Source of the DNA: a phage | Reading direction: 5' to 3' (one strand) | Length of the DNA stretch: 64,000 bases | Sequence record: PZ540767.1 | Shown: positions 17,055 to 44,036 of the stretch, piece by piece | Numbering within the stretch: position 1 is the first letter of the stretch | Layout: every line of letters starts with the position of its first letter | The notes under the pieces: generated by a model | What the model was told of the DNA's origin: nothing | The model's input: only the letters and a program-made list of their open reading frames with translations | Databases searched by the model: none | Position numbers and translations under genes: made by a program

Positions 17055-17082
17055 AAGCCCCTCAATGAGGGGCTTCTTTTTG
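17055..17082. terminator. Bidirectional intrinsic terminator at convergence of + and - operons
   Basis: aagcccctc-aat-gaggggctt 9-bp stem, T-tract on + side (ctttttgg) and A/T-rich on - side. Confidence 0.6.
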
Positions 17083-17270: not shown

Positions 17271-17975
17271 TTAGTCGAAGTTAGCAAATGGGTCGTCTTC
17301 AGTATCTGCTGGTTTAGCAAAGCCAGCCTCACTGGTTTCAACTACTTTGGTTACCGGAGTATCTGCCTGAGCAAACAGCTCGTCACCTTCAGATGAAGCC
17401 AGCCCAGCGTCTGCGAATGGATCGACTTCTTCTGCTACAGCAGCATCTTTGGCTTCTGGCAGCAGTTCATTTTCAGCACGCAGGTTTGCACCTTCGTCAA
17501 TGTCGAATGGGGCAGCATTGTCTGCATCACTGGTTTCAGCAAAGAGATCTTCTTCACTTTCAGTTTGAGTTTCTGCTTCAGCTTTTACTTCAGCCTGTGC
17601 TGCGGCTTCTTCGGCAGCTTTATCAGCTTCGATTTCAGCTTTAGTACGACGTTTACGACGCTTAGGCTTATCGTCACCAGGTTCGTTACTGGTTTCCTCA
17701 GCTGAATCTTCTTCAGCCTCTTCCTCTTCCACTACTGGAGGCTCTGCGAAGAGTTGTTTAGCAACTTCAGACACAGAACCAGAACTAAGAGGGCCAGTTA
17801 AATCAGCAACAGATTTCAGGCGGAAGTTATCTTCGCCTACAGCTACAGCTGCCACGATCTGACCATCCAGAATACCTACTGTAACATCAGCCCCTTTAGC
17901 TGTAGGTACGAGACTGGAAAACGCATGTTTGGTCACCAGTTCGATCAGATCTTCAGTAGAAAGCAAAATACGCAT
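17271..17975 (-). CDS. Highly acidic protein with repeated D-P-F motifs (234 aa)
   Basis: ATG with aagga RBS; Glu/Asp-rich, KPKRRKRR basic patch; internal 'EEVDPFADAG' and C-terminal 'EDDPFANFD'. Confidence 0.6.
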   Translation of the reverse strand: MRILLSTEDLIELVTKHAFSSLVPTAKGADVTVGILDGQIVAAVAVGEDNFRLKSVADLTGPLSSGSVSEVAKQLFAEPPVVEEEEAEEDSAEETSNEPGDDKPKRRKRRTKAEIEADKAAEEAAAQAEVKAEAETQTESEEDLFAETSDADNAAPFDIDEGANLRAENELLPEAKDAAVAEEVDPFADAGLASSEGDELFAQADTPVTKVVETSEAGFAKPADTEDDPFANFD

Positions 17976-17977
17976 AG

Positions 17978-18541
17978 TTAATCCTTAGTAGCTAACATGG
18001 TTAGCATTTTGAAAGTTTCAGTTTTAATTCCAGCATGTACGGCTGCTACAGCGTCTGCCATGTGCTCTGCTTTACTGGCAATGATCTGGCCATTAAGTTT
18101 GGGCCAGTTAGCATCAGGATATAAACCAGATGCCCAATCAATACCTTGCTGCTTTGTTGCAGAGGATTTACCAGTGATTTCCATTCTGGTTTCAGTAGCA
18201 TTTACACAGATCACAGGTTTAGCACCATGACTGTTTCGTATGGCTGCTATTAACCCAATACAGGCACCTGCACCCAGTGAAGCTCTGGCATTCTGACTGC
18301 CATGAGGAACTTCAATACAGATGGCATCTATGTAAGGCATATAGCTCATTACCTTCTCAAACAGGTATTCAGCTCTGGCTAAGTCCTGAGAAGATTTCCG
18401 TACTTGCTTGGAATTATCTTTGGGTGGTTGGATAACATCCAGCTTGGCAACACTAAGAGATCTGGCTTCAGTGTCATATAACATTGCAGCCAGTCCCCAG
18501 TTACTAAAGCTTGGATCCATCCCCAGCAGTTTGAGTTTCAT
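17978..18541 (-). CDS. RuvC-like Holliday junction resolvase
   Basis: N-terminal 'LGMDPSFSNWG' resembles RuvC-family G(I/L)DPG motif; ~187 aa. Confidence 0.5.
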   Translation of the reverse strand: MKLKLLGMDPSFSNWGLAAMLYDTEARSLSVAKLDVIQPPKDNSKQVRKSSQDLARAEYLFEKVMSYMPYIDAICIEVPHGSQNARASLGAGACIGLIAAIRNSHGAKPVICVNATETRMEITGKSSATKQQGIDWASGLYPDANWPKLNGQIIASKAEHMADAVAAVHAGIKTETFKMLTMLATKD

Positions 18542-18827
18542 TAGGATCCTCTTCCATGGTGAAGGGCAGTTTTAAGAACTGGTTCAGAGCATACTCTACA
18601 CCCAGTTTAAATAAAGCACGTTCACGAGGATCAGTAATCAACTCAGGTTGATCAGCACCATCGAATTGGACGTTAAGATCGATATCGTCCGGGGCTTGAA
18701 TTACAGCCAACAGGTGATGGCCAATGTTACGATGCCAATCTGCTACCAGGAAACCTAACTGAAGGTGGTTCTCTACTGGCAGAATGTTTTCAGGTTGATC
18801 CTGTACTACGGTTGAATCTTGGGTCAT
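18504..18827 (-). CDS. Hypothetical protein (107 aa)
   Basis: ORF with ATG preceded by gaggt RBS; overlaps resolvase start by 38 nt. Confidence 0.45.
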   Translation of the reverse strand: MTQDSTVVQDQPENILPVENHLQLGFLVADWHRNIGHHLLAVIQAPDDIDLNVQFDGADQPELITDPRERALFKLGVEYALNQFLKLPFTMEEDPNETQTAGDGSKL

Positions 18828-18869
18828 GGTAACCTCAGAATAAGCCCCCTGGTTTAGGGGGCTAAGTTA

Positions 18870-19610
18870 TTACATGGTAAATGGATCATCACCAGTGGTG
18901 GCATTGTCAGATCCTGGGTTGAAACCAGCACCTGCAAAGTTACCACCCGGAGCACCAGCGTTACCCTGACCAGTCACTTCTTTGAAGCGATCCCATACCT
19001 GGCCTTTGTTAGCTTCGAGCCACTTATCTTTGAAAGTAGCGACTTCCTGCTTACCACGAATTTCCTGTTCAGTCTTATCGTCTTTACTACGGAAGACTTT
19101 TGCAATGGCATTGATCTCACGAGCTTCATTGATCGGCTCATACTGACCATCATCGTTGCGTTTCTGCTTGTTCTCTTTAATACGCTGGATAGCGAAGGTG
19201 ATCGGTTTACCACACAGATCCACCAGCATAGGAACATCAGTCGGAACTTCGGCTTTCTTCTCGAAGTTATACAGGTTGATGGTTTTGGTTTCTGGTTCCA
19301 GTTTAACCAGAGGCTTACCGCAGGCCAGCAGGCAGATCGAGTTTGCTTTCAGGAAGTTCTTGGTGTACTCGCCTTTATCGTTGACGACTTTACCCTGACC
19401 GTTCATGAACCAGATCTGCTCTTTGTAGATGCCGTGATCATCTTCGAATTCGATGTTCATGGCTTGAGCTTTGGACTTTTCCGACTTGGTGATGTAAGCC
19501 AGTTTGATGATGCCCGGATAGACGTCAGTGTCACGAATGCGCATACCAGTGCCCAGGGTATCTTTCTCTACTGCTTTTTCTGCATCATAGTTAAAATCAA
19601 AATAAGACAT
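18870..19610 (-). CDS. ssb: Single-stranded DNA-binding protein (phage SSB-like)
   Basis: 246 aa with Gly-rich linker (GNAGAPGGNFAGAGFNPG) and acidic tail 'GDDPFTM', reminiscent of SSB C-terminal tails; position in replication/recombination module. Confidence 0.5.
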   Translation of the reverse strand: MSYFDFNYDAEKAVEKDTLGTGMRIRDTDVYPGIIKLAYITKSEKSKAQAMNIEFEDDHGIYKEQIWFMNGQGKVVNDKGEYTKNFLKANSICLLACGKPLVKLEPETKTINLYNFEKKAEVPTDVPMLVDLCGKPITFAIQRIKENKQKRNDDGQYEPINEAREINAIAKVFRSKDDKTEQEIRGKQEVATFKDKWLEANKGQVWDRFKEVTGQGNAGAPGGNFAGAGFNPGSDNATTGDDPFTM

Positions 19611-19611
19611 G

Positions 19612-20142
19612 TTAGTTACCTTTTGTTTCTAGGCCATGGTTCTCATGGAAGCCTAATTCAATTAATTTCTCAGCCCGGCAGATAGCTGCTTCATTGGCTG
19701 TTTTGAAGGTACGTTGCCATACCTTCTTACGGTTCATCGTGATTTCTGCTACATAGCGATCACGACGTTTGCAGTACCAAATACCTTGGTGTCCAGTAAT
19801 GGTATTGCTGATTGCACCCCTGTTTCGCATATTCTGAAGCATCGTAGTGTCCTTCAGATTTACTGCCCTGTTGTCATCACGAATATGGTTATCGTGGTCT
19901 ACGTGCCCTTTAGGCCACTGCCTGTTGTGCATGTAGTAACAGATGATATGCTCTCCATAGGTAGTGCCGAAGATTGTTATATGGCGGTAGCCGCTAGCCT
20001 TGTGGAGACTCCCAGCGCGACTACCGATAACAATTCTCTTATTACAAGACTTGCTAATCCAAGTAAGATGTCCAGTAAGAGCATCATATTTTAGTACCTT
20101 TTCAAGCATTTCAAGGGTGAGATCTTTTTTGGGAATTTTCAT
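19612..20142 (-). CDS. HNH homing endonuclease with AP2-like DNA-binding domain
   Basis: 'HVDHDNHIRDDNRAVNL' HNH motif; C-terminal 'GIWYCKRRDRYVAEITMNRKKVWQRTFKTANEAAICRAEKL' AP2-like; free-standing between ssb and ATPase. Confidence 0.7.
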   Translation of the reverse strand: MKIPKKDLTLEMLEKVLKYDALTGHLTWISKSCNKRIVIGSRAGSLHKASGYRHITIFGTTYGEHIICYYMHNRQWPKGHVDHDNHIRDDNRAVNLKDTTMLQNMRNRGAISNTITGHQGIWYCKRRDRYVAEITMNRKKVWQRTFKTANEAAICRAEKLIELGFHENHGLETKGN

Positions 20143-20870
20143 GCGTAATACTCATGCAAACGGTCTAAGACCAACTGCATGTCATTATCGATGAAGGTTT
20201 CCTTGATATCAAATAAGTCCTCTGGGCCACGTAAACGCTCGTTAATGGTGTTCTTAGTAACCTGGGTCTGGTAAACATGCTTGTACCCGAGCATCTCCTC
20301 GCGCTCGTTAATGTGAAGTAACCCGTTCTGGTATTCTTCCAGATCCGTAAGCTTCACTTTCTTACAGGCAATAACCAGACTGAAGTATGACTCAATGCCC
20401 TGGTTCTTCAGTGCCCCTTTAACAGGTACACAGGTTTCACGAACCATGTCATCGTTAACTTCATCCTTCGTGTGAGCTAAGAAGATCACGTTCTTGGTAG
20501 ACGTGGCTACCAGCACCTGCATCAGGTGTTTGAACTGCTGGGCAAATTGGCCCCATGCAGCTTGGGTATTCGAGCTAGTAAGTACGAGCTGGCTCTCTAC
20601 CATGTCCATGTAGTACGTCAGTGAATCAACTACAATGGTGTGAATATTCGGCTGGGTTTCAGCCCACTGAAACGCTTTAGGGAGGATATCCCAACGTGCA
20701 ATGGTACGTTCCAGGAAACCTGATTTGAACGGCAGCTTTTTACCTGATTCACAGTTAAGGTACAGCACACCTTCCGGGTTCTTCAGGTTCTTCAGTGACC
20801 GTGATTTACCACTTGCTGATTTACCTACAAGCAGTACAAGGTTGTCATTAACGCTGATTTGATCGGACAT
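20139..20870 (-). CDS. RecA-fold P-loop ATPase (Sak4/AAA_24-like recombination ATPase)
   Basis: Walker A 'GKSASGKS', Walker B-like 'IVVDSL'; start set to internal ATG 20870 (MSDQ...). Confidence 0.5.
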   Translation of the reverse strand: MSDQISVNDNLVLLVGKSASGKSRSLKNLKNPEGVLYLNCESGKKLPFKSGFLERTIARWDILPKAFQWAETQPNIHTIVVDSLTYYMDMVESQLVLTSSNTQAAWGQFAQQFKHLMQVLVATSTKNVIFLAHTKDEVNDDMVRETCVPVKGALKNQGIESYFSLVIACKKVKLTDLEEYQNGLLHINEREEMLGYKHVYQTQVTKNTINERLRGPEDLFDIKETFIDNDMQLVLDRLHEYYA

Positions 20871-20939
20871 AATTACCTCTTTTGAAATGCCCCCGAAGGG
20901 GCAAACCCACAAAGGGAACGGAAGTTCCCCAACACACAA

Positions 20940-23099
20940 TTACTTAACTTTCTTGGCAATGGTGAGCATGATGCTGCCATCAATTTCACTCTCGTCCAGC
21001 TTACCGGGAAGCTTGTTGTTCAGTTCCTTCACCTGGCTTCTGATACGATCCAGAGAGAACCCTGCATCTACCAGTACCATGGCATAGTTGAACAGCTGCT
21101 TATTACGGTTACCATCACCAGTGTTGTTAAGTACCCAACGTTCCAGATTATCCAGTTGATGCTGATCAGTAAGCATTTGCTTACGATCCTCGTTCTTACT
21201 GGTTTTAGGAATGAAGGGGAGCACATCGAATAGCTGACCATCCGTATACTCATAATGCCCTTTATGTGTTAACCATTTCTTAGAACGGTGTGAACACTGG
21301 TCATCAGCTTTAAATGGCAAGCCTTCAAGGACGTTGTTATAAAACTCCTTGTAGTCTTTGGCATCCAGCTTCAGCTCATAGTTAATAGGCAAAATGATAC
21401 GGAAACGGTTAGTCTCTTCGGTATGTCGTTTAGTGGTGTAATACAAAGCCCTGTAGTCTTTCAGCAGTAACTTAGCTGTAGACAACTGACAGGTTCCATC
21501 CACATCAATAACCAGAAGGTTAAAGCCAGGAATGGCATTCTCTTCATTACGATAACCGTTCATCACTTTATGGGTCAGCCAGTGAAGATCAGGCTGATTT
21601 ACCAGTCTGTGCAGTTGATCGAATGGTACGTCTTTAGGTACGAAACCAGTGGTTAAATCCTTGCTGTATGACAAGATCATCTCATCAAGGTTAGTTGGTT
21701 TCAGAGATTCACCACTCAGGAATAAGATGCCATCAGTGTAGCTTCGCTTCACAATGATGTTGTTTTTATAACCATAAGCAATAGCCAGGTTAATCATCTC
21801 ATCCTTCTGGTTTTTACCACCACGGAAATAAGGCAGATCCTCATCCATGTCAGCCAAAGTAACGTCTGTGCCTACATCAGCTAAATACTTAGCCAACTTG
21901 GCATAGTTACGTTCAGGCGTAAGCAGCTTGGCAAAAGCTTCACCACATTCTTCAGTAAGCTTAATGGCGTTCTCCAGATGATCCTGAGAAAGCACAGGTG
22001 AACCATCTACGAAAGCATAAGCAGCAGCCAACTTCATGCACTTAAAGTAACGGTTCTCAAGTTCACCCTTTTGGATAGTTTGATACTCGTTTAAGTGTTT
22101 GGATTTGGCTTCGCAGTCCAGACGGTACTGCAAGATGTTACGTAGTACTTCGCGTGGGATAGTGATAGCTTTACGAAGGTTAGAGATATCTGCCAGCTTC
22201 TCCAGCTTCTTACCTAGATCGGTAATGAAGGTATCAGCATTGGCATCAAACATCTGCTTCATAATGTCATCAGCTGTAATCCCTTCTGGTTTCTTAGCTT
22301 TCAGCAGGAAACCAAAGTGACAACGACGTGCATAGCCCATCTCCAGCATGTCATACAGACGACGTTCAGTTACATCCCCATCAAACAGCTTGGTTGGAGT
22401 ACCAAACAACAACATGTTAGTTGGAGTACTACCTACCAGCTTCTCATGGCGAACGTTTTCAGCAGACGATTTGATCAGCTTATCTTTTACTAAACCGAGG
22501 TCATAGAGTTCCAGGAAAGTATCCAGTACCTCAGTCTGACCTACCAGGTTTGCACCGATTTCATCAATCTGCAAGTTAACAGCACCTGCATTACCCATAA
22601 GCAGTTTATGACGCATCTGCTTAACTGCTGGGGTAGTACCAGAGTCAAAGCTAAACAGAAGACTGCCTAAGCTTTCAAACTCTTTACGCACCTTCTCCAG
22701 CTCATCTTCTGGGTCAACCAGATTAGACGCTGTGGATTTACGTTGAGCACGTTTCTGAGCAAGCTCAAACATGTTCTGTTCAGCTACTGTAGGGAAAGTT
22801 ACTTCCAGGAATCGTTCACGGAATCCTGCAAGCAATTCACGTTCGATCAGGCTGGTGGAATAGCCTTTACCAGTACCTGACGGAGACAGGTTCAGAGCGT
22901 AGATATTGATAGGCAGATCGTTACGATCATATCCTTTAATGACTGCTCGCATAGACGAGGCCATTACACCCCAGTAGTAAGCCAGAACTACCCTGAAAAA
23001 GAGTCGTTCTTCGTTAAGGGTTTTAGCATTGAGAAAATCAACGATCTTCTCACTGGTGGGATGATATTTCATCTCACTCACTGGTTTGATGGAGATCAT
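20940..23099 (-). CDS. Large replication protein, putative primase (719 aa)
   Basis: 'LLVIDVDGTC' DxD-type motif and glycine-rich 'SPSGTGKGYS'; position in replication module. Confidence 0.4.
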   Translation of the reverse strand: MISIKPVSEMKYHPTSEKIVDFLNAKTLNEERLFFRVVLAYYWGVMASSMRAVIKGYDRNDLPINIYALNLSPSGTGKGYSTSLIERELLAGFRERFLEVTFPTVAEQNMFELAQKRAQRKSTASNLVDPEDELEKVRKEFESLGSLLFSFDSGTTPAVKQMRHKLLMGNAGAVNLQIDEIGANLVGQTEVLDTFLELYDLGLVKDKLIKSSAENVRHEKLVGSTPTNMLLFGTPTKLFDGDVTERRLYDMLEMGYARRCHFGFLLKAKKPEGITADDIMKQMFDANADTFITDLGKKLEKLADISNLRKAITIPREVLRNILQYRLDCEAKSKHLNEYQTIQKGELENRYFKCMKLAAAYAFVDGSPVLSQDHLENAIKLTEECGEAFAKLLTPERNYAKLAKYLADVGTDVTLADMDEDLPYFRGGKNQKDEMINLAIAYGYKNNIIVKRSYTDGILFLSGESLKPTNLDEMILSYSKDLTTGFVPKDVPFDQLHRLVNQPDLHWLTHKVMNGYRNEENAIPGFNLLVIDVDGTCQLSTAKLLLKDYRALYYTTKRHTEETNRFRIILPINYELKLDAKDYKEFYNNVLEGLPFKADDQCSHRSKKWLTHKGHYEYTDGQLFDVLPFIPKTSKNEDRKQMLTDQHQLDNLERWVLNNTGDGNRNKQLFNYAMVLVDAGFSLDRIRSQVKELNNKLPGKLDESEIDGSIMLTIAKKVK

Positions 23100-31479: not shown

Positions 31480-32255
31480 TGGGTAACTTCATTAAAATGG
31501 GCACTACGCTGAGTAATGCCAACCTGACTAAATTAACTGCTGATGCGACCATCGATAACAGCACTGTAATGCTGATTGACTTTGGGCGTAAAACTTCAGT
31601 GCCTAACCAAACAGATCTGGTTAACGGTGATACTGTTGGCAACCTGGTTGAAGGTCAAGCAGGGGGTTCTGTAATTACCGGAACCAAATTCCTCTTCTCT
31701 GCTGCTGGTAAGTACATTACTAAGCAAGAAGGCGATATCTCAACCCGAATCCAGTTGCCTGATGTTTGTAAGGTTAAATCTACTGATCGTAGCTTCCAAT
31801 TTAGCCTGTGGTTTACCCACATTGATAAAACGGATACTCAGGGTAGCCAAGCATTGGGTGGTTATGCATCTAACTCCAGTAACCAGATGCCTTTTGCATT
31901 TTACTGGTATGATGGTCAATACAACTTGGGTTGTGCTGGTTCACGTACTGCATTTGCTACTCCAGCGGCGGGAACAGTACACCAGTTGTCTGTTGCTTGT
32001 GACCTAGATCTGGGTATTCGTAAGTTCTATCACAACAATGAACTGATCCGTACTGAGACTAATATTGGTCTTAGTGAAATGACTCAGCCTGCTGCTGGAT
32101 CTCTGCCTTGGTTGTTCTACCTGGGTGGTGGTTTTAACAGCCGTGGTAACGTTAAGATGCACCGAGCATGGCTTGATATTAACGGTGGTGGTGCTAAGTT
32201 CGATGCAAAAGTAGCTGCGGACTACAACACCAACTACAGCCGATTTGCGGCTTAA
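31479..32255 (+). CDS. Beta-rich protein, possible receptor-binding/lectin-like partner of the tail fibre
   Basis: ATG overlaps upstream stop (TAATG); aagga RBS; Gly/Ser/Thr/Asn-rich. Confidence 0.5.
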   Translation: MGNFIKMGTTLSNANLTKLTADATIDNSTVMLIDFGRKTSVPNQTDLVNGDTVGNLVEGQAGGSVITGTKFLFSAAGKYITKQEGDISTRIQLPDVCKVKSTDRSFQFSLWFTHIDKTDTQGSQALGGYASNSSNQMPFAFYWYDGQYNLGCAGSRTAFATPAAGTVHQLSVACDLDLGIRKFYHNNELIRTETNIGLSEMTQPAAGSLPWLFYLGGGFNSRGNVKMHRAWLDINGGGAKFDAKVAADYNTNYSRFAA

Positions 32256-32272
32256 GTTAGTAACTTAGAACT

Positions 32273-32298
32273 AAGCCCCTTTATTAGGGGCTTTTTTA
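32273..32298 (+). terminator. Intrinsic terminator (partial), before lysis cassette
   Basis: aagcccct-ttatt-aggggctt hairpin followed by TTTT. Confidence 0.55.
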
Positions 32299-32313
32299 TA
32301 TATGAGGTTTATT

Positions 32314-32802
32314 ATGAAAATGTCGAATGAAGGACGCAAAGTAACTAAGTATTTTGAGTCCCTTAAATTACGTGCTTACCCTGATCCTGCTACTGGGGGT
32401 AAACCATGGACTATTGGGTATGGTCATACTGGCCCAGATGTTTATCCTGGTTTGGCAATTTCGCAAACCAGAGCTGAACAGTTGCTTGATGCTGACCTTG
32501 CTAAGGCTGAAGCAGAAGTAAACAAGTATGGGCATAACCTTACCCAAGGTCAGTTCGATTGCCTTGTGGACATGGTATTTAATATGGGATCTGGTTTTAT
32601 CCGGCCTGACAACATCAAGGGTGATTTTGATGACTTTGTTGCATCGGGTAATACTGCTGAGATGCGTAAACGTATTCCTCAATTCCGTATGGCCAACGGT
32701 AAAGTTATGAGAGGTTTAGTACGTCGTCGTGCTGCTAACCTTGCTACATGGGACGGTAAGTCTGGTGATGAAGCAATTAAAATAGGGGTAAATGCTGCAT
32801 GA
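32314..32802 (+). CDS. Endolysin, T4-lysozyme-like (GH24)
   Basis: 'ESLKLRAYPDPATGGKPWTIGYGH' matches the T4 lysozyme E-D-T catalytic region ([21 protein letters not shown]). Confidence 0.8.
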   Translation: MKMSNEGRKVTKYFESLKLRAYPDPATGGKPWTIGYGHTGPDVYPGLAISQTRAEQLLDADLAKAEAEVNKYGHNLTQGQFDCLVDMVFNMGSGFIRPDNIKGDFDDFVASGNTAEMRKRIPQFRMANGKVMRGLVRRRAANLATWDGKSGDEAIKIGVNAA

Positions 32803-33020
32803 AACTTGTAGAAAACTGGAAGTCAGCATGGAAGTGGTATTCTGTGCATATTATGGTAGTGATCGTTGCACTTCCTGAAATCTGGAGTTACTTTCCACAG
32901 GAGTTTAAGGATTCATTACCTCCACATGCTCTTGCTGGATTAACAACTTTCCTGGGTATCTCAGCGATTGTTGCTCGTCTGGTTTCTCAGGAGAAACGTA
33001 ATGATCAAGGATCTAATTAA
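32799..33020 (+). CDS. Putative holin (73 aa)
   Basis: ATG overlaps endolysin stop (ATGA); one or two hydrophobic helices; position between endolysin and spanins. Confidence 0.45.
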   Translation: MKLVENWKSAWKWYSVHIMVVIVALPEIWSYFPQEFKDSLPPHALAGLTTFLGISAIVARLVSQEKRNDQGSN

Positions 33021-33510
33021 ACAGTATGCTGTTTTGTTAGGTTCTGTTCTGGCCCTGGCTTTACTTGCCGGGGCTTGTTACTTAACCTATGTTGTAACAG
33101 ATAACCACTGGTCTGCTAAGTATTCTGGATTAGAACAGAAGTATAGTGATGCTTCTGCCAAAGCTACTCAGGAGGCCAGAGTCAAAGAATGGGAGTACCA
33201 AAACAATGTTGATGCAATCGCACAGCAAGGGGCTAAAGACCTCGCACAAGCTCGCTCTGACGCTGATATTGCCAATGCTTCTGTTAGCAGGTTGCAGCAA
33301 CGGATCAACCGTTTACTTGCCAACACCAGCTCCGAAGATTCCGGCACTACCCAAAGAGGCAAGACAGCCAGAGAAGCCCTCGATCTGCTTGCCAACGTGC
33401 TCGAAAAATCTCTCGAACGAAACAGACAGTTGGCTGACTACGCCGACAAAGCCAGTAGTGCTGGATTCACCTGTGAAAAAGCCTACGACGCCATCCAATC
33501 AGGCAAGTAA
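33001..33510 (+). CDS. i-spanin (Rz-like)
   Basis: Internal ATG 33001 after aggag RBS; N-terminal TM helix then coiled-coil periplasmic domain. Confidence 0.6.
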   Translation: MIKDLIKQYAVLLGSVLALALLAGACYLTYVVTDNHWSAKYSGLEQKYSDASAKATQEARVKEWEYQNNVDAIAQQGAKDLAQARSDADIANASVSRLQQRINRLLANTSSEDSGTTQRGKTAREALDLLANVLEKSLERNRQLADYADKASSAGFTCEKAYDAIQSGK

Positions 33511-33535
33511 TACTAAGTTGGTTTATTTCGTATAA
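33206..33535 (+). CDS. o-spanin (Rz1-like lipoprotein) overlapping i-spanin in +1 frame
   Basis: Signal peptide with lipobox 'LLAGC', Pro-rich mature region; embedded in or overlapping the Rz gene. Confidence 0.55.
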   Translation: MLMQSHSKGLKTSHKLALTLILPMLLLAGCSNGSTVYLPTPAPKIPALPKEARQPEKPSICLPTCSKNLSNETDSWLTTPTKPVVLDSPVKKPTTPSNQASNTKLVYFV

Positions 33536-33586
33536 ACCAGTAGAATGATGTACATTAACTAGACTTTTCATGAAGAGGAAACACCT

Positions 33587-34030
33587 ATGTCTAAAGTCCC
33601 CTCTATCGGTGCTGGTGTTATCACTACCGATGATGTGCTGGCACAAGGCTATGATTTTATCCCCCTGAAAATGGGTGGTATGGCTAAAGTGCCTGCTGAT
33701 GTAGCCGCTGCTCAATCTAAAGACGTCACTGGTGCTGCTTATACTAAACCAGCAGCTCTGAGTCTGACTACTGATCTGACTGCTACTAAATCTGTTGCTG
33801 AAGGTGCTGCCCTGGAACTGAAAGTAGTTCCTGCTGGCGGTGTTGCACCTTACAGCGTTACCTGGTTTAAAGGTGGCTCTGCTATCCAGACTCTGGGTAG
33901 TTCTACCCTTAACCTGGGTGCAGCTACTCTGGATATGGCTGGCTCTTACCATGCTGAAGTCTACGACGCAGCTGGTAAAGAGATTCAGTCTACTACCTGC
34001 GTAGTGACTGTCACTGAAGCTGGTGGTTAA
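33587..34030 (+). CDS. Ig-like (Big-type) domain protein, candidate capsid decoration protein
   Basis: gaggaaa RBS; 'YSVTWFKGGSAIQ...AGSYHAEVYDAAG' Ig-like signature; own terminator downstream. Confidence 0.55.
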   Translation: MSKVPSIGAGVITTDDVLAQGYDFIPLKMGGMAKVPADVAAAQSKDVTGAAYTKPAALSLTTDLTATKSVAEGAALELKVVPAGGVAPYSVTWFKGGSAIQTLGSSTLNLGAATLDMAGSYHAEVYDAAGKEIQSTTCVVTVTEAGG

Positions 34031-36521: not shown

Positions 36522-37015
36522 GGATCCTCTACGCTAAACTTGGGCACCAAGATAGCGCTGACGTTAGGCAGGTATTTTCTGACTTTATTAATGACAGATT
36601 TGTCATCATCGATCAGGAAAATTTCTACTTTATCCATCGTAGTCATGGCACCCATGCAAAACATTGGGATCAGTGACAGCAATGCTTCCAGTTTGAAGTT
36701 AGCTGCACTTCCACCCAGATTTTCACTGCGGTTATGGAGTAAGTCGAAGATAAGATTACCTTCTTCTTTGAAACGATCGTTTGTTTCTTTATCCAGAACT
36801 TTGCTACGGTTAGACAGACTAATCAGAACTGAATCCTGATTAATCAGCGATTTAACCATTTCAATACCTTTATGGTTCAAAGGCTCTAAGATCCAGGCTT
36901 TATGCCAATCAAGCCACTCGTGCTGGTTTGATGGGTCTTTGGGGATGTACTGCTTTCGAAACTCACTGTTACCGTTTAGAACTCCGTCCAGGTCACAGAA
37001 GATCAGTCTACGCAT
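36515..37015 (-). CDS. HAD-superfamily phosphatase-like protein
   Basis: N-terminal 'FCDLDGVLNG' (HAD motif I DxDG). Confidence 0.5.
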   Translation of the reverse strand: MRRLIFCDLDGVLNGNSEFRKQYIPKDPSNQHEWLDWHKAWILEPLNHKGIEMVKSLINQDSVLISLSNRSKVLDKETNDRFKEEGNLIFDLLHNRSENLGGSAANFKLEALLSLIPMFCMGAMTTMDKVEIFLIDDDKSVINKVRKYLPNVSAILVPKFSVEDPW

Positions 37016-39632
37016 GTGATGCCTCTTTTTGTTTTAGCTTATCCAGTGCTTTAGCCACAAAGGGCTTTATATCATCTTCTGCGAGGTTGTTAGGCAGAGT
37101 GATAGCATTGGCCCAGTTGGGATAATACAAGTCCAGTTCAGCTGGCAGAGGGATTCGTGGATCAGCAATTTCAGGTAAACCTTTCCATGCCATACACTCG
37201 ATCAAGTTGTCATTAACAAACTTGATTACCCTTACGTTGTTACGCATCAGCACATAGATAGCATCATGAATCAGAGCCACAGGCAGAATGTCATAACGAA
37301 ACTCTGAAGCCCACACACGCTCCATGAACTCATTAGCAGCACGGTTGGTTAACAGACCATAAGACTGACCTGAGATAGCATTGCCTAATGTACGTCCCTC
37401 AGCTTCAGCTTCACGTAGCGTCTTGGTGGTATCCAGGATCGAACGTGCAAGGAGCGGGGTACGAATACGCAGCCCAAAGGCAGCAGTGGCATAGCCGTCA
37501 TTACAGGCTTGTCTGATGCGTTCTTTAACCCATTCACCCGATACAGCATAGAGTGCATGGAAACTGGCTTCAGTTTCTTTGGCTTCCTCTTCAGAGAAAC
37601 CACAGTTCTTAACCAGGGTAATCCAGGTGCCTTGATACTGAAGTGCAAAGCTTGGTGCTTTAGACTTATTACGTAGCGGGTAGTATGGGTGATCCTTTTC
37701 AGCTATCTGGTTTACAGAAGCTGGATCATTAATGTCGATATCCGGCATTAACTTGGCACCCCAATAGCCCACAGCACGTAACGAGTGACCGTCGAAGCCA
37801 TCCGTGAACACTTTGACCTTGTTAGGATCTTGTGTTAACAGTGCATTGATACGATCTTCCAGAGCATTAAAGTCTGCTCCACCGAATACCCAACCATCGG
37901 GTGCAGCAAAGCATTTCTTGATGAGTTTACCGAAGGTACTCCCAGAAGGTAGCTGCTGTAGGTTTGGATCCGATGAGCTTAATCGCCCTGATACTGTACC
38001 ACCCAGGTTGAAGTTACCATGAAGGTAAGATCTTCCATTACCTTTGTTGAAGGCATTTTTAAAGGTGGGTATAAAACTGGTGAGGATCTTCTCACCGTCT
38101 CCAAACTCACGAAGAGTTTTGAGTACTATCTTTCCACTTTCAGTAGCATGGTTTTCCAGCTTCTTAAGTGTTGCACCAGCCGTAGATGGCTGCTTGGTTT
38201 TGGTTCTGTCCAGCACAGGAAGTTTCATCACTTCATAAAGTAAAGTGATCAGATGGTTGCCACTATTAGGGTTAAACTTAAGGTGACTGAAAGCACTGAG
38301 AGGGTACTGTTTAGTCTTCAGAGTGGCATTCTTAGCTTCCATTGCTCTGGTTTGAATAAGCAATTCTGCTTTCTGAACCAGGGGGTGTGCATACAAAGTT
38401 TTAAGACTTCGATCATGCAATTCCTGTAATTGCTTCTCTGCCTTATCCACCATAGCGGGGATCATAGGCATACCAGTAAGTTCAATCTGGGTGATTGTCT
38501 TCTGGCTTGGCATCATCAGGTATTTATACAGCTCAAGCTGCATATCACGAACCATAACAGGGTAATACTTGTTATAGACGTACCAGGTAGACATGGTATC
38601 GATGATGTTATAGCGGAGCAGTTCAGGCAGGGGGATCACCAGGATATTGGTAATATCAGACATAGCCCAGTTACCTGCAAATTCATGAGCAAGCTGTTTC
38701 AAGCTCAGTTCATTTTTTGCAGTATTGTTCAGTGCGAGATAAGCAATGATGCGAGTATCATCACAATCTCGATAGAGACAATCCAGGCCACGCAGTAAAC
38801 CTTCATTATCCAGGGGATCTTTCATCCAGAGGTTATAGATCAGGACTTTGGTATCAAAGTTAGCCCTGTGGAATTTCAGGTTACCCTTATATTCCTCAAA
38901 GAACTTACGCAGCTTAATACGAAAGCCTTCGTTAAACCAACGGTAGTTTTCCCCTTCACTTACTGCAAGGTCACAGGTAAATGCTATACCGCCTGTATTA
39001 TCAGGGCTGAAAGCAATAGTACCAATGCCAGCAGTAAAGATATCAAGACTGAAAGTTTCGATATCACAGGTCAGCTTAGGGTAAGACATTAACTTGGCAA
39101 ATGCCTCGTCAATTTCCTTTTCAGTCTGGGGATACAAAGCCCATTTCAGGATATCAGCACCCAAAGCTTTATAGCTGTTGGTTACCTTACCTGCTAAGGC
39201 TTGCACAGACATTTCCAGTTTATCTGCCTGGTTTGGGTTATAGAGTAGAGCCTGATAGTTAATACCTACCAGTATTTCAATATCCTCGTACCCCGGTATT
39301 GAACAGGGAGTGCCATAACCGATCATTGCATCGATCTTGGCATTCTTAACCAGACACTTAAAGTAAGTGGAGTCAGCACAGTAAATGTACTTAACACCCA
39401 TCTTCTTAAGCTGAGGGAGAATTTTAGCCAGATAATCCTTACAGAACTTGGCTGGAGCTTTACCATTGGATTCATACTCTAGCGAAAACGCCAGAATGTT
39501 CTCTTTGGCATAGCCAGCTTCGACTAAAGGATTAACGTAGTGACGCTCAATCTGATCCTGATAGAAAGCAGACTCTTTGATGAGTATTGCTGTCTCGAAT
39601 TCAGGTTTATGAGCGAACATGATATGACGCAT
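37008..39632 (-). CDS. DNA polymerase, family A
   Basis: 874 aa; exonuclease-like 'CDIETFSLD', polymerase region with 'LIHDAIYV'; N4 gp39-like position. Confidence 0.8.
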   Translation of the reverse strand: MRHIMFAHKPEFETAILIKESAFYQDQIERHYVNPLVEAGYAKENILAFSLEYESNGKAPAKFCKDYLAKILPQLKKMGVKYIYCADSTYFKCLVKNAKIDAMIGYGTPCSIPGYEDIEILVGINYQALLYNPNQADKLEMSVQALAGKVTNSYKALGADILKWALYPQTEKEIDEAFAKLMSYPKLTCDIETFSLDIFTAGIGTIAFSPDNTGGIAFTCDLAVSEGENYRWFNEGFRIKLRKFFEEYKGNLKFHRANFDTKVLIYNLWMKDPLDNEGLLRGLDCLYRDCDDTRIIAYLALNNTAKNELSLKQLAHEFAGNWAMSDITNILVIPLPELLRYNIIDTMSTWYVYNKYYPVMVRDMQLELYKYLMMPSQKTITQIELTGMPMIPAMVDKAEKQLQELHDRSLKTLYAHPLVQKAELLIQTRAMEAKNATLKTKQYPLSAFSHLKFNPNSGNHLITLLYEVMKLPVLDRTKTKQPSTAGATLKKLENHATESGKIVLKTLREFGDGEKILTSFIPTFKNAFNKGNGRSYLHGNFNLGGTVSGRLSSSDPNLQQLPSGSTFGKLIKKCFAAPDGWVFGGADFNALEDRINALLTQDPNKVKVFTDGFDGHSLRAVGYWGAKLMPDIDINDPASVNQIAEKDHPYYPLRNKSKAPSFALQYQGTWITLVKNCGFSEEEAKETEASFHALYAVSGEWVKERIRQACNDGYATAAFGLRIRTPLLARSILDTTKTLREAEAEGRTLGNAISGQSYGLLTNRAANEFMERVWASEFRYDILPVALIHDAIYVLMRNNVRVIKFVNDNLIECMAWKGLPEIADPRIPLPAELDLYYPNWANAITLPNNLAEDDIKPFVAKALDKLKQKEASHA

Positions 39633-39684: not shown

Positions 39685-41562
39685 CTACTTAAGCCAGGTT
39701 TTCAGTTCATCACTGACTTTCGGATCAAGTCCGAATGCTTTTGGCCCTTTCTTACGAGAGGACATGAAGAACTGGAGTTCCCCTGCTGCATCTTTGGTGT
39801 CAGCACGGTTACCTTTGGCTTTAGTCTCTTTGAAGACACGATACAGCTCTTGTGCCTGCTCTTTGACTGTCATAGCCTTACCTTCTGGTTTAGCTGGAGA
39901 TTCAGCTTTTGTTTCAGGAGTAGTGACTTTGATATCACTGGCTTCACGAATGGACAGGATCAGCTCTGCATCTTCATCAGAGATGCCCAGTTTAGCCCAG
40001 CCTTTCTTAGCTTTCTGTTTGGCAGAGATTAATTCCTCTGCAAACTTCTGGGCAGTAGCCAGATCTTCAGCCAGATAAGCAGCTTCAAATTGCTCCCAAA
40101 GGAGGTCAATTTTAGTCTTCTTGATTTCAGGGGCAATAACTGGGGCAGGTTCTTTCAGATCAGCAGCCAACACTGGCGATACTTTTTCAGTAGGTGCTGC
40201 TTCTGACAGATCAGATTGTTCCAGTGTTTCCTTAACCAGATCTACTTTTACTTCTTCAGCTTTTGCTGTTTCAGTATTTTCGACCTTGGTATAGGTTACA
40301 TTGCTGCCATTGTGACCACCCACTTCAACCAGTTCAGTAATGCCCACATGAGCACCACGCAGAACTTTGTTCAGCAGCTCTTTACCCTCTGGGATAGAAG
40401 AAATAGAGCCACCACTGTTAACGTGGTTACGCAGCGATTCAGGCAGTACAGCAAGGATGTGGTAACCACATACACGCATTTTAGTGCGGCTGTATTCTGG
40501 TACAGCAAAGACGTCTTCAGGACGTACTTTAGCCATCACAGTGACGTTACCAGGGAAGCTGCTGAGATAGCCCAGGGAAGCTACATGGAGGCCATTAGAG
40601 CAGTCCTGACGGCGGTTAGGATCTACCAGACCTGGTTTCATGAAGACATAGGAACCCACATTCTGTTTGATGTTCCCGGAATGAACATCCACGAAAGTTC
40701 CATGCTTCTCTTTGAGACGTTTGTAGATAACGATACAGCCGTCATCTGCAATAGGAAGATCACCATGTTCGATGAACTTCATCAGGTCTTCAGCAGAGTG
40801 ACCACGATCTTTCAGAACAGGTTCCAGACGGTTCAGGAAGTTTACGAAGCCACGGAAATCCTTCAGCTTACTTGCTGCTTTCATCTGAGATGATAGCTTG
40901 TGAGCATGAGGAATCACACTACCTGTCTTGGTGTTGACTGCCACAATGGTATCAGGATCTTCATCCGTGATAGGTTTGTGGAAATCAGGATCATCAACAG
41001 TACTACCTTTGCCTGCAAGCTCGCGCATACGGGCTGTAGCCAGATCGATTTTCTGATCATTGGTGAGTTCTGCTGGTTTGGTTACCTCATTTGCAGGGGC
41101 TTCAACTACTTCTTTCAATGCTTCTAGGGCTTCTTCTGCTTCTACTGCCGCAGATGGAGCTTCCAAAGCATAAGTGAGGTCATCAGCTTCCTCTACATCC
41201 AGAATGGTCTGGCCTGGCTTGATACCCAGTTCCAGTGGCGAGATGTGAGCAACACTCTCATCCACCTTTTCAGGGGATTCAGTGTCGATGAACTTTTTGA
41301 CGAAACTTTTGGCAACACGGAAGAACTTGATAAGTCCCCCAGTGCCTTCTTCAGTTTCTTTGAACTCATTGCGTACCTTGATAGGTTCTGCAATGTCTAC
41401 AACCGCAGAGCCATCCACAGGGATGTACTTTTTGGCTGTTTCGACGATGTTCGGCAAACGAGGATCACCCTGTGCAATGGTCACAGTACTGCCATCCTCT
41501 AAATAGAGGACAGCATTCTGAGCATCGACAGAGATTCCTACGATGGTCACTAGTTTTTTCAT
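39685..41562 (-). CDS. rIIB: rIIB-like protein (by position downstream of rIIA-like gene), 625 aa
   Basis: Start overlaps rIIA-like stop; acidic/Lys-rich C-terminal half; no catalytic motif recognised. Confidence 0.4.
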   Translation of the reverse strand: MKKLVTIVGISVDAQNAVLYLEDGSTVTIAQGDPRLPNIVETAKKYIPVDGSAVVDIAEPIKVRNEFKETEEGTGGLIKFFRVAKSFVKKFIDTESPEKVDESVAHISPLELGIKPGQTILDVEEADDLTYALEAPSAAVEAEEALEALKEVVEAPANEVTKPAELTNDQKIDLATARMRELAGKGSTVDDPDFHKPITDEDPDTIVAVNTKTGSVIPHAHKLSSQMKAASKLKDFRGFVNFLNRLEPVLKDRGHSAEDLMKFIEHGDLPIADDGCIVIYKRLKEKHGTFVDVHSGNIKQNVGSYVFMKPGLVDPNRRQDCSNGLHVASLGYLSSFPGNVTVMAKVRPEDVFAVPEYSRTKMRVCGYHILAVLPESLRNHVNSGGSISSIPEGKELLNKVLRGAHVGITELVEVGGHNGSNVTYTKVENTETAKAEEVKVDLVKETLEQSDLSEAAPTEKVSPVLAADLKEPAPVIAPEIKKTKIDLLWEQFEAAYLAEDLATAQKFAEELISAKQKAKKGWAKLGISDEDAELILSIREASDIKVTTPETKAESPAKPEGKAMTVKEQAQELYRVFKETKAKGNRADTKDAAGELQFFMSSRKKGPKAFGLDPKVSDELKTWLK

Positions 41563-44036
41563 GGTTTAGTTCCGTTTTTGAGTGCACTTAAAACGATGGT
41601 TTTCAGAGCAGAAGCTCGCTCTGGGTATTGAATGAGCCACTGAAGGACACTTCCGTCACCATGCCCAAGGGCACGTAACATAGGGTCTTTACGCAGCACT
41701 TTCAATTTCTTGATAAAGGGTAACTCTTCCAGCCTACCCCGCATGATGGTTTGGATAGGATCCCAGTTTTCATCTGCGTTGAGTTTCTCATACTCTTCTG
41801 GAGTATAAGCATAGACAGCCACCACAGACGGAGTAAGAGTGAGAATACGCTCAAAGTAAGGATCATACCGTAGTTTCTCTAAACCAGGCAGTTTAATGCC
41901 GAGTTTAGTACACAGCTTGATATCCTGAGATGAGATACGATGCTGAGTAGCCAAGGCTTTCTGGCGTTCTTTGGTAACATACTTTGCAAATGCTTTACTC
42001 AATACCACTTGTTTAACACGCGGTATAAAATAGGCATCTACATCGATAGCACCACGGTTCTCAGCCATACGGCGTTCGATACCATTACGAACAACTACCC
42101 CATCAAACAAGTCCTCTGGTGTAGCATCCTTCAGATGAATAAAGCTTCCCAGCATACCCCCATGGATATCATCAATAGAGATGAAATACTTAGGGTTTTG
42201 GTTCACCTGGGTTGGCTCTTTACAGGCAGTAATTTCACCTTTAAGTTTCCAGTTACCGTTTTTCAGATAAGCAGAGACAGTACCCAGATTATTGCCTGGT
42301 TTTTCAGCTTTAATCTTGGCTTTTTTCTCACGCTTTTCCTTTGCTTCAAGGATTTCTTGATAGGCAGGATCCCATTCTACACCTGGGGTTAGATCCACTA
42401 CAGTAAACCCAAGCTTTTCCAGTTTTGCTGTGACAGCAGCAATCTCAGGAGCTTTAGCTCGTGGATCCACTTTCAGTGCCCATGCAGCATTGGAAGTTCC
42501 CTGAACATAACCCTTATATGCTGACTTACTCGCAGCAATACCTTTCAAACGGGAAGTAAGAAACACTACCTGGTTTTCAAGGTAAGTTACGATTTGAGTT
42601 CCTGAGAATGGAATACGACGCATAAAGCCATCGCTATAGACATTACGGCCCCACCAGGTATTTTCCTGGGTACTAAAGCGTAAACTCTTAACCGAGATAA
42701 AATCAGCCCCAGCAATACCTCGCATAATACGTTTGATAGTATGTTTGCGAAGGAATGCATAGATAGCTTCACGGGTTCTGTGAGTGCCATATGTGGTAGC
42801 TTTACGTAAATCCCACAGAGCCTGGTTAGCATATAGCCATTCTGGATTAGTAAACTGGTATAACTTTTTGAAGCCAACATGTTCGGCTTCTTTGAGTTCT
42901 TTCCAGTACTTCATACGAATAGAGGATCCCAGGTTACTACCAAGATAGCGTTTAACTACGTTAGGTTGGATTTCCTCCAGAATGTTGGCAGTACTGCCAA
43001 TAGCAGGTTGTCCCTTATAAAACTTACCTTCACGCATACGCTTGCAAGTAGCAGCAATAGAAGAAGGAATCTGAGCAATGATATCCTTTTCCATGGTTGC
43101 AACTAATTGCACACAGAGATCGGTAAGACCATCTTCAGTCAGTTTCTGACTGGAGAGGGCTTCACGAGCTGGGGTTAATGCCAGAGTATCAGGGGCTGCT
43201 TGAACCAGCAGACGTTGAATACCAACGATCTCCATAAACTCTGAGAGCATTCCAGTGGCTTTGCTGGTGGCTTCTGTAAACAGCATTGGGTAGATGACAG
43301 CACCATAACGCACAAAGATTCTGTGGTTACCCATGTACTTGTTGTACCAGACTTCATCATCTGTATTCCATGAACCAGGCTCCTGGGACATACCCAGTTT
43401 AGCCATAGGCTCAAATTCGCCACCCATCCAACTGAGTTCTGCATTCATTTCACCATGCATAACCAGATACTTCAGGTAGGTATGAGCTGTCTGGGCCTGA
43501 TCCAGGGTTAAACGAAAGCTGACAGTTAAACCAGAGCGGGTAGTAGGGACGCTAACCATAGGTGTAATACCTGGTTTGCCCCGGTTCTCTACTACTGAAC
43601 GAGCCATGTTATAGACTGTCTTCGTTCCGTTGTGCTCAGAAGTCACACGGAAGGCATCCACAAGTGCCCATGGAGCTTTACTACCCAAACCAAAGCCACC
43701 GGTAGTCTTACTGTCGTTACGCTTGGTGGAAGCACCATAGGTGCCATAGATTTGGGCGATCTTCTCCGGGGGAATACCCAGACCGTTATCCTGAATGATC
43801 AGTTCACCATCAGTGGTGATGGAGATCTTCAGGGGTTGATCGGTAGTACCAGCTTCGATATTAGCATCCCATGCATTACACAGTGGCTCACGAATAGCTG
43901 CCAGCAGCTGGTTTGAATACAGGTTAGATGACAGCATCATCAGAAATGCAGCATCCTCTACCATAGATACAGCGAGAGTTTCCCCAGCACCCAGAGAGGC
44001 AGAGGTCGATTTGTTTTGCATATCCGCAACTTGCAT
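41559..44036 (-). CDS. rIIA: rIIA-like protein with N-terminal GHKL (Bergerat-fold) ATPase domain
   Basis: 'EPLCNAWDA' (N-box), 'DNGLGIP' (G1), 'GGFGLGSK' (G2) in the first 130 aa; 825 aa. Confidence 0.6.
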   Translation of the reverse strand: MQVADMQNKSTSASLGAGETLAVSMVEDAAFLMMLSSNLYSNQLLAAIREPLCNAWDANIEAGTTDQPLKISITTDGELIIQDNGLGIPPEKIAQIYGTYGASTKRNDSKTTGGFGLGSKAPWALVDAFRVTSEHNGTKTVYNMARSVVENRGKPGITPMVSVPTTRSGLTVSFRLTLDQAQTAHTYLKYLVMHGEMNAELSWMGGEFEPMAKLGMSQEPGSWNTDDEVWYNKYMGNHRIFVRYGAVIYPMLFTEATSKATGMLSEFMEIVGIQRLLVQAAPDTLALTPAREALSSQKLTEDGLTDLCVQLVATMEKDIIAQIPSSIAATCKRMREGKFYKGQPAIGSTANILEEIQPNVVKRYLGSNLGSSIRMKYWKELKEAEHVGFKKLYQFTNPEWLYANQALWDLRKATTYGTHRTREAIYAFLRKHTIKRIMRGIAGADFISVKSLRFSTQENTWWGRNVYSDGFMRRIPFSGTQIVTYLENQVVFLTSRLKGIAASKSAYKGYVQGTSNAAWALKVDPRAKAPEIAAVTAKLEKLGFTVVDLTPGVEWDPAYQEILEAKEKREKKAKIKAEKPGNNLGTVSAYLKNGNWKLKGEITACKEPTQVNQNPKYFISIDDIHGGMLGSFIHLKDATPEDLFDGVVVRNGIERRMAENRGAIDVDAYFIPRVKQVVLSKAFAKYVTKERQKALATQHRISSQDIKLCTKLGIKLPGLEKLRYDPYFERILTLTPSVVAVYAYTPEEYEKLNADENWDPIQTIMRGRLEELPFIKKLKVLRKDPMLRALGHGDGSVLQWLIQYPERASALKTIVLSALKNGTKP

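Follow-up and report, generated by a model that had tools for sequence, protein, structure and literature searches.

Phage N4 relies on its SSB (the protein that binds single-stranded DNA) to activate late transcription: the C-terminal residues of this protein (N4SSB) are essential for activation, binding to single-stranded DNA is dispensable, and the target is the C-terminal end of RNA polymerase's beta' subunit (PMC4496689). S260, K264, and K265 make up the activating region (Miller et al. 1997, as cited in PMC2784036). For the tip of N4SSB, where these three residues lie, the only experimental data are about activation of the host RNA polymerase via beta' (PMC4496689, PMC2784036), and not about the helicase, polymerase, or resolvase that an earlier note on the DNA discussed here had considered as partners. 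This DNA, which we call the window, is a stretch of 64,000 nucleotides (PZ540767.1) from an N4-like Klebsiella phage (Schitoviridae, Efbeekayvirus). It encodes an SSB and, separated from it by two genes (for a Gam-like and a RuvC-like protein), a highly acidic protein of 234 amino acids. Both proteins end with a short motif around a phenylalanine, and we found that these two ends vary together across N4-like phages.

The closest relatives of the acidic protein in sequence are gp47 from N4 and gp61 from phage Ab09, and the closest analogue in logic is from phage T7, where the C-terminal tails of gp2.5 (the SSB) and gp4 (the helicase-primase) are interchangeable. A peptide from the gp4 tail (DTDF) was the template for docking the tail of gp2.5 on T7 polymerase (PMC12339929). 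In both T7 and the N4-like phages, two proteins from one phage have the same C-terminal Phe tip, and in T7 the site on the partner is common to the two. However, the Phe is the terminal residue in T7 and the tails are acidic, while the tips from N4-like phages have 0-6 residues after the Phe and are mostly not acidic. Also, the protein families are unrelated, and the second protein in N4-like phages is not an enzyme but a small, mostly disordered factor that can carry multiple copies of the motif.

In a June 2026 preprint, Ab09 gp61 was named Bes2 (broad evasion of signaling 2) and the RuvC-like gp60 was named Bes1. The preprint reports that either Bes1 or Bes2 suffices for renewed resistance to CBASS II-A and to both Thoeris I and Thoeris II; that these proteins neither bind nor cleave the signals; and that the Bes proteins "may contribute to phage development." It describes Bes2 as being without any recognizable similarity and does not give a mechanism, and the words "motif," "mimic," and "disordered" are absent from its text. 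The activity against Thoeris and CBASS is a result for Ab09 gp61, while the family member from the window is known from its sequence.

The SSB from the window is 33% identical to N4SSB (E = 1e-27, BLASTP) and matches phrog_743 over residues 5-226 (E = 3.5e-65). As in N4, the SSB gene is downstream of the primase and the Sak4-like ATPase, here with the gene for an HNH/AP2-type endonuclease between the ATPase and the SSB. The protein does not match any Pfam family, SSB and OB families included, at E up to 0.01, and a profile search did not find a relative with a solved structure in PDB. (Both of the AlphaFold 2 or AF2 models used in this analysis are of low confidence, with a mean predicted local distance difference test or pLDDT of 52.5 and 59.0.) Like N4SSB, it has a flexible linker that leads to a tip with a Phe; the linker (GQGNAGAPGGNFAGAGFNPGSDNATTGDDPFTM, with the tip at its end) aligns with low-complexity C-terminal segments of other SSBs. 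N4SSB has 265 amino acids and ends with A-K-S-L-F-G-K-K. Because S260 is the serine of SLF, and K264 and K265 are the last two residues, the activating region that was mapped in N4SSB is this tip. In the window, the open reading frame (ORF) of the SSB ends with NATTGDDPFTM*, which confirms the ending GDDPFTM given in the earlier note. Unlike the tip of N4SSB, this tip is acidic and lacks both the Ser-Leu and the two lysines, and both binding to single-stranded DNA and tip-dependent activation of the host's RNA polymerase at late promoters are known for N4 alone.

The acidic protein has 59 D/E and 20 K/R residues. It contains EEVDPFADAG (residues 182-191) and ends with TEDDPFANFD*, as the earlier note had read from the same ORF. 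That note's D-P-F repeats are real, but its count was too low, as there are further [D/E]-[L/P]-F-A copies (the contexts of the Phe residues are in Table 2). Beyond residue 70, the only aromatic residue in the protein is Phe, which occurs eight times and precedes Ala in six of these. In the predicted proteome of the window (about 20,600 amino acids), DDPF is found solely in the SSB and the acidic protein, in each case within the last nine residues. DPF occurs four times (1.7 expected), and three of these are in the same two proteins; [DE][LP]FA also occurs four times, always within the acidic protein. From residue frequencies, we put the probability of meeting that 4-mer by chance at the C-terminus of some other one of the 85 proteins at about 0.002.

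The region with the motifs is predicted to be disordered (pLDDT under 50 from AF2), and the protein as a whole is not, as it begins with a conserved domain of about 55 residues. For this N-terminal domain, AF2 predicts a helix (residues 7-22) and three strands (31-36, 39-46, and 50-55) with modest confidence (pLDDT of 60-80). If we consider the window's protein together with five divergent relatives, Phe is the sole aromatic residue in the disordered part, and of the 39 Phe there, 28 come right after L or P, where 4.8 would be expected. Within the genus, every motif Phe is invariant except for F76, which is specific to a lineage. The motifs are also slightly more conserved than the linkers within the genus (0.87 versus 0.82, p = 0.017), but this is weakly informative because the entire C-terminal half of the protein is conserved there.

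Searches with the sequence of the acidic protein reach only close relatives (tblastn gave matches from close Klebsiella phages only, and phmmer with the N-terminal domain alone gave seven matches among 1.8 billion representatives), so we used gene order to identify it. In N4, G7C, ECBP1, LUZ7, DL64, TR2, Pylas, MIF8, and Nepra, the gene after the resolvase encodes a protein that starts with M-x-I-x-L-x-Q-x-E-I-x-x-A-L. (The resolvase is RuvC-like, except in TR2 and Pylas, where it is RusA-like.) Across 92 related loci, which were gathered with an alignment of the primase, a hidden Markov model (HMM) of the N-terminal domain found a gp47-like protein in 56; the loci with no match either are incomplete at the end or have an obvious divergent copy. 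When we compared the profile of this domain from the window's clade to the profile of the canonical family, the hhalign score was 94.7% (E = 6.4e-8 over 47 columns). The gene lies right after a RuvC-like gene in the region from the primase to the virion RNA polymerase (vRNAP), as do N4 gp47 (after gp46) and Ab09 gp61 (after gp60), and Ab09 gp60 is 43% identical to the RuvC-like protein from the window (E = 1e-47). The architecture is the same as well: a small domain, a disordered linker, and a C-terminal tip with a Phe. Judging from position and profile, N4 gp47 and Ab09 Bes2 are both homologues of the acidic protein.

The acidic protein nevertheless differs from typical members of the gp47/Bes2 family, which have about 100-145 amino acids and one tip. 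It is twice as long and strongly acidic, it has D-D-P-F instead of S-L-F, it has four to five additional internal copies of the motif and a separate G-F-A-K-P motif, and its N-terminal domain does not have the A-G-R-K loop. The length, the acidity, and the extra copies are characteristic of an Efbeekayvirus/Cbunavirus-like clade (the window, MIF8, Nepra, L018/L019, and P0124), in which the gp47-like protein is acidic, has 217-262 amino acids, and carries four to six additional copies of [L/P]-F that keep the same order. Conserved in this clade, too, are G-F-[A/V]-K-P and a basic stretch (K-P-K-R-R-K-R-R-T-K-A-E-I-E-A-D), and patches that resemble the one in the window (KPKRRKRRTKAEIEAD) are found in MIF8, Nepra, P0124, L066, and G7C. 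So the class of motif that the earlier note had described as D-P-F is kept in homologues.

Some other annotations of this family do not hold up. The homologue from Tribble_ER49 (L001 3265-3948) is labeled as a RusA-like Holliday junction resolvase, but the acidic protein from the window does not match Pfam and its match to phrog_14238 is weak (E = 2.7e-5). The match covers positions 145-281 of 311 in the profile, outside the expected RusA domain of about 130 amino acids, an indication that the PHROG combines a RusA and a gp47-like portion. TR2 and Pylas have RusA as a gene of its own, upstream of the gp47-like gene. (In both of these, TR2 at L008 4912-5735 and Pylas at L011 5478-6300, the gp47-like gene abuts or overlaps the RusA-like gene.) That the gp47-like gene follows either type of resolvase is a hint that the two proteins are functionally connected. 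The labels "ribonuclease E" (for a homologue from JGI) and "tail protein" are spurious and arise from weak or low-complexity matches. We also set aside a weak resemblance of the N-terminal domain to the N-terminal half of YfiA/RaiA, a ribosome-associated inhibitor (E = 0.006 by hmmsearch against PDB; hhalign 80.6%). For HPF, which is a paralogue of YfiA/RaiA, the hhalign score was just 8.8%, and Pfam's S30AE was touched by 1 of 33 family members (E = 0.18).

All usable N4-like loci have one type of tip on both the SSB and the gp47/Bes2-like protein, usually K-x-T-T-S-L-F-G/S/N (Table 1). An [L/P/V]-[F/W] tip lies within the last nine residues of 70 of 70 distinct SSBs, and 120 of 120 gp47-like proteins end with a hydrophobic residue, Phe, and at most six more residues. 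To retrieve the latter proteins from among 5.8 billion sequences, we used a profile limited to the N-terminal domain, so the presence of the tip is independent of how they were found. The position profiles for the two proteins are identical (K-P/K-T-T-S-L-F-G/S/A/N-stop), with L-F at frequencies of 87-92% and S or D before the L-F at about 93%. We found no mention of this shared and co-varying tip in the papers that we consulted.

Table 1. C-terminal tips of the SSB and of the gp47/Bes2-like protein from the same phage or locus.
Phage or locus	SSB	gp47/Bes2-like protein
Window	GDDPFTM	EDDPFANFD
MIF8	GDNPFL	DNPFAD
Nepra	QSDLFL	LDLFS
L018	QDNLFM	AINLFA
G7C	KSLFGKR	PSLFAGLKRS
L034	SLFAKPQS	SLFAKPQSN
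L075	SLFGKPAA	TLFGKPATAA
L078-80	VDSLFD	DDNLFD
L081-83 (sister lineages of L078-80)	VDSLFG	EENLFG

Besides being similar overall, the two tips co-vary. Among 42 distinct pairs, 41 end alike. If the tips are anchored at the Phe, there are 144 identities between tips from the same phage, as compared to 100.6 ± 5.3 when the pairs are shuffled, and none of 10,000 shuffles reached the observed value. With one representative per cluster of SSB cores (41, 31, or 19 representatives), none of 20,000 shuffles matched the observed value in each case, and with one representative per clade, there were 58 identities versus 36.4 ± 3.6 (0 of 20,000 shuffles). The net charges of the last 12 residues are also correlated between the two proteins (rho = 0.88). 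Chance resemblance is excluded by these statistics. Because the codons for the two tips differ at synonymous sites, selection seems to act on the peptide and the similarity is not due to DNA copying, so we set gene conversion between the two tips aside.

The one pair that does not end alike involves gp47 from the N4 reference genome (NC_008720 31678-32120). This gene has a run of four A where PMBT57, from the same species, has five, which shifts the frame: the annotated end NLLCLQV* should read AKPSLFAGLKR*, as PMBT57 encodes. This is either a sequencing error or a mutation in the laboratory strain. The corrected tip (S-L-F-A-G-L-K-R) copies the tip of N4SSB, including its two basic residues. 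Within gp1-gp49 of N4, the SLF tip is present only in the SSB and the corrected gp47.

A mutant of Ab09 may provide an example of exchanged tips. The June 2026 preprint describes a viable deletion obtained with Cas3, Ab09 delta-gp57-61 (41,096-42,899), which lacks most of gp61 as well as 51 bp of the SSB gene. Two copies of the heptamer CCGGCAG in the Ab09 genome (HG962375) begin precisely at these endpoints, 41,096 and 42,899, and are 1803 bp apart. Recombination between the copies would remove 1803 bp and lead to an in-frame fusion, SSB...GRPAP-AAKQAAPASTGGSLFS*, with the tail of Bes2 on the SSB. In that case, the SSB of the viable mutant would retain an S-L-F tip, with Bes2 as the donor. 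This suggests that tails can be interchanged in Ab09 much as they can in T7. The predicted fusion is not mentioned in the preprint.

Since the tips are alike within a phage and differ between phages, we infer that both proteins dock on one receptor. It is very probable, given these patterns in the sequences, that the tip of the SSB and the tip of the acidic protein are a shared functional motif with a common receptor. The earlier note had proposed that copies of the SSB tip in the acidic protein address the same partner. Its reading as a whole is supported in part, and for this core idea the support from conservation and co-variation across the family is strong.

As the best explanation, we tentatively propose that the acidic protein mimics the SSB tip in a multivalent form, acts on the same receptor, most probably the host's RNA polymerase, and tunes late transcription. 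In N4, the SSB uses its tip (S260-L-F-G-K264-K265) to contact the conserved C-terminal region of beta' and thereby turns on the late genes. The acidic protein consists of the folded N-terminal domain, the basic patch and its helix, a long acidic disordered region, and the C-terminal tip. The tip and the four to five internal copies reproduce the linear motif at the end of the SSB, which is [acidic]-[L/P]-F in the window and, in most relatives, K-x-T-T-S-L-F-G/S/N. If N4 is taken as a guide, the acidic protein would bind the receptor of the SSB tip, and SSB-dependent late transcription could be tuned either by competition with the SSB or by delivery of whatever cargo the N-terminal domain has. 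If the late structural proteins that trigger Thoeris and CBASS were lowered or delayed, then Bes2 could blunt these defenses and leave the signals untouched. As for RNA polymerase being the receptor in the window's phage in particular, the analogy to N4 makes this possible but somewhat doubtful. In its most general form, the idea would be that gp47/Bes2-like proteins are dedicated mimics of the activating tip that act on the C-terminus of beta' and set the timing or level of late transcription driven by the SSB, that this is the "novel mode" in which Bes2 evades Thoeris and CBASS, and that the form in Efbeekayvirus/Cbunavirus is a multivalent acidic scaffold with room for several receptor molecules at a time. 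We think that this broader version is rather unlikely.

Several observations weigh against our proposal. The tip in the window is acidic, so its charge is opposite to that of N4's activating region with its two lysines. Two phages of the same host genus can have different tips, as the Klebsiella phage Pylas has SLFSK. More broadly, the type of tip follows the clade of the phage and not the host, so a phage-encoded receptor that co-evolves with the tips fits better than an invariant host protein does. SSB tails usually serve partners in replication. The activating lysines are missing in most members of the family (PMC2784036). Precise deletions of bes1 and bes2 in Ab09 are viable in the absence of the defenses (June 2026 preprint), so Bes2 is not an essential transcription factor. 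Also, an HMM built without the window's clade reaches L019 and L028 only (E = 0.005-0.008) and misses the acidic protein, so its family membership rests on profile-profile similarity, synteny, and architecture. Finally, the Ab09 fusion is suggestive but is a single event, and such a fusion had a prior of 1 in 3 of being in frame.

Some of these points would be explained if the shared tip is a motif for a replication or recombination hub. In this case, the receptor would be encoded by the phage (candidates are the DNA polymerase at 37008-39632, the primase, the Sak4-like ATPase, an exonuclease, or the resolvase next to the gp47-like gene), and the role of the gp47-like protein would be that of an adaptor or regulator that brings its N-terminal domain, perhaps together with this resolvase, to the hub or displaces the SSB from it. 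Clade-specific tips, such as SLFSK and DDPFTM in phages of Klebsiella, are expected if the receptor belongs to the phage. The gp47-like gene always follows a resolvase, whether RuvC-like or RusA-like, and one PHROG merges RusA with the gp47-like family. N4SSB is required in replication and recombination (PMC2784036), and in the T7 precedent, the tails of gp2.5 and gp4 go to one site on the polymerase (PMC12339929). On the other hand, the sole function that has been mapped to the tip is in transcription (PMC4496689, PMC2784036), and a phage protein would need a very conserved pocket, given how little the S-L-F core varies among phages that infect alpha-, beta-, and gamma-proteobacteria. We consider a phage-encoded hub to be unlikely overall, although it deserves to be taken seriously.

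In T7 gp2.5, T4 gp32, and the SSB of E. coli, the tail folds back onto the DNA-binding surface, and the tip might do the same on the SSB of N4-like phages. The acidic protein would then be a DNA mimic that regulates or chaperones the SSB. This would suit the window's clade, in which the SSB tail and the gp47-like protein are both acidic, and co-evolution with the fast-evolving core of the SSB would naturally give rise to co-variation. But in most of the family, the context of the tip is basic or neutral (K-K-P-T-T-S-L-F), which is not DNA-like, and the genetics of N4 separates the function of the tip from the binding of single-stranded DNA (PMC4496689). Folding back is therefore an improbable explanation.

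The tip also resembles the motif for binding the beta sliding clamp (QL[S/D]LF), so it might be a degenerate clamp motif that tethers both proteins to the host's clamp. [S/D]-L-F corresponds to the last three positions of this consensus; some tips have Q-x-[S/D/N]-L-F (QSDLF in Nepra, QDNLF in L018, and QNSLF in L033). A C-terminal position is typical of clamp-binding motifs. However, just 11% of SSBs have Q at position -4, the second position is usually not hydrophobic as the consensus requires, and the tip in the window is G-D-D-P-F. (Two internal copies in the acidic protein read E-D-L-F and D-E-L-F.) N4 reportedly replicates without depending on the functions of the host's Pol III. Late activation by N4SSB goes through RNA polymerase (PMC4496689), and we view the clamp as very improbable.

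Lastly, the biased composition of the acidic protein, which does draw spurious labels, might make the resemblance a functionless by-product of low-complexity acidic sequence, or of recent copying of DNA, but this is hardly credible given that all 120 gp47-like proteins and all 70 SSBs have the tip, that co-variation exceeds every shuffle, that Phe in the disordered region follows L or P far more often than expected, that the tips differ at synonymous sites, and that family members that are not acidic keep the tip.

To return to our proposal of a mimic of the SSB tip, the co-varying tip on both proteins links the activating region of N4SSB, which was mapped in 1997, to the missing mechanism of Bes2, and so offers a testable mechanism for an anti-defense protein. 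It has been a standing puzzle that the activating region of N4SSB is conserved without its lysines, and this is now tied to the shared tip. If the proposal is correct, it would be a case from a bacterial virus of a disordered protein that controls a hub interaction by multivalent mimicry of a motif. Two database annotations are corrected as well: the "RusA-like resolvase" label and the frameshifted gp47 of N4.

FBKp27, P184, and Tribble_ER49, which are Klebsiella phages, share about 96% identity with the region around these genes. The genes are in a minus-strand operon that is convergent with the vRNAP gene, in the order primase, Sak4-like ATPase, HNH/AP2 endonuclease, SSB, Gam-like protein, RuvC-like protein, acidic protein, and small membrane protein (Table 2).

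Table 2. Features of the window, with positions in the 64,000-nucleotide stretch.
Feature	Positions	Strand	Remarks
vRNAP gene, 3560 amino acids	6368-17050	+	
Hairpin terminator between the convergent vRNAP gene and operon	17055-17075	.	Annotated on both strands in FBKp27
Small protein with two transmembrane segments, 57 amino acids	17087-17260	-	Always 3' of the gp47-like gene
Acidic protein, 234 amino acids	17271-17975	-	Expanded member of the N4 gp47 / Ab09 gp61 (Bes2) family
C-terminal tip EDDPFANFD	17274-17300	-	Like the SSB tip GDDPFTM; codons differ synonymously from those of the SSB tip
Separate motif EAGFAKP (G-F-[A/V]-K-P)	17310-17330	-	TEDGFVKP (Nepra), TEEGFAKP (L018), ADGFVKP (P0124)
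Motif copy GDELFAQ	17367-17387	-	F201 invariant; GDELFAQ in P0124, DENLFAD in L018
Motif copy EVDPFAD	17409-17429	-	F187 invariant; DNPFAD (MIF8), ADPFAD (P0124), TDLFAD (Nepra)
Motif copy NAAPFDI	17499-17519	-	F157 invariant; TPPFDT (MIF8), TPPFDV (P0124)
Motif copy EEDLFAE	17535-17555	-	F145 invariant in 121 relatives
Basic patch KPKRRKRRTKAEIEAD	17622-17669	-	Invariant in 121 close relatives; start of helix 112-140, predicted by AF2
Motif copy KQLFAE (F76)	17742-17759	-	Lineage-specific; only about 6% of the close relatives have it
N-terminal folded domain, residues 1-56	17808-17975	-	Helix and three strands; from AF2 and family alignments
RuvC-like protein	17978-18541	-	Orthologue of N4 gp46 and Ab09 gp60 (Bes1); phrog_159, E = 1.8e-32
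Gam-like protein, 107 amino acids	18504-18827	-	Clade-specific, also in MIF8 and Nepra; phrog_15896, E = 9e-11
Terminator-like hairpin directly 3' of the SSB gene	18845-18860	-	Terminator annotated at the same spot in FBKp27
N4 gp45-type SSB, 246 amino acids	18870-19610	-	From phrog_743, identity to N4SSB, and gene position
SSB C-terminal tip GDDPFTM	18873-18893	-	Phe (F244) invariant in the family alignment
SSB Gly-rich flexible linker, residues 214-246	18873-18971	-	Tip at its end
HNH/AP2-type homing endonuclease	19612-20142	-	Inserted between the Sak4-like ATPase and the SSB
Sak4-like ATPase	20139-20939	-	
Primase	20940-23099	-	
ATPase, counterpart of N4 gp24	48104-49156	-	phrog_1297; ends with RHADELF*
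Early ORF, 73 amino acids	62931-63152	-	Ends with SGFSDEIPF*

The ends of the HNH/AP2 endonuclease gene overlap or abut both of its neighbors, and the gene is also found in MIF8 and Nepra but not in N4. A gene for a protein with two transmembrane segments likewise follows the gp47-like gene in MIF8 (gp65), Nepra (gp81), TR2 (gp88), and Pylas (062), and N4 has an apparent small transmembrane protein, which is not annotated, right after gp47. From gp47 to gp48, N4 has about 1.5 kb with no annotated genes (32113-33631); the counterpart of this stretch contains tRNA genes in ECBP1 and annotated terminators in G7C.

Two other proteins in the window end with similar residues. The ATPase that corresponds to N4 gp24 ends with ADELF*, which is probably not related to the shared tip, since gp24 itself ends otherwise. 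The second is the early 73-amino-acid protein. The C-terminal tip of enterobacterial SSBs is DDDIPF, and the window's SSB, with its flexible linker and short acidic Pro-Phe tip, is reminiscent of this (D-D-P-F versus D-D-I-P-F). Unlike the bacterial tip, its Phe is not terminal (PFTM*, and PFANFD* in the acidic protein), and the consensus of the family is S-L-F in a basic context. The earlier note had grouped the early protein, with its DEIPF ending, with the SSB and the acidic protein. The early protein has no match in PHROG, and tblastn gave no match in GenBank phages. Its ending is real and conserved, as FSDEIPF* is unchanged in all eight homologues that we found in a large protein collection (67-95% identical), but with a terminal Phe as in the host's SSB, it belongs to a different class of motif and lies outside the system of shared tips. 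Judging from these sequences, the early protein is a better mimic of the host's SSB tip than the D-D-P-F of the window's SSB is.

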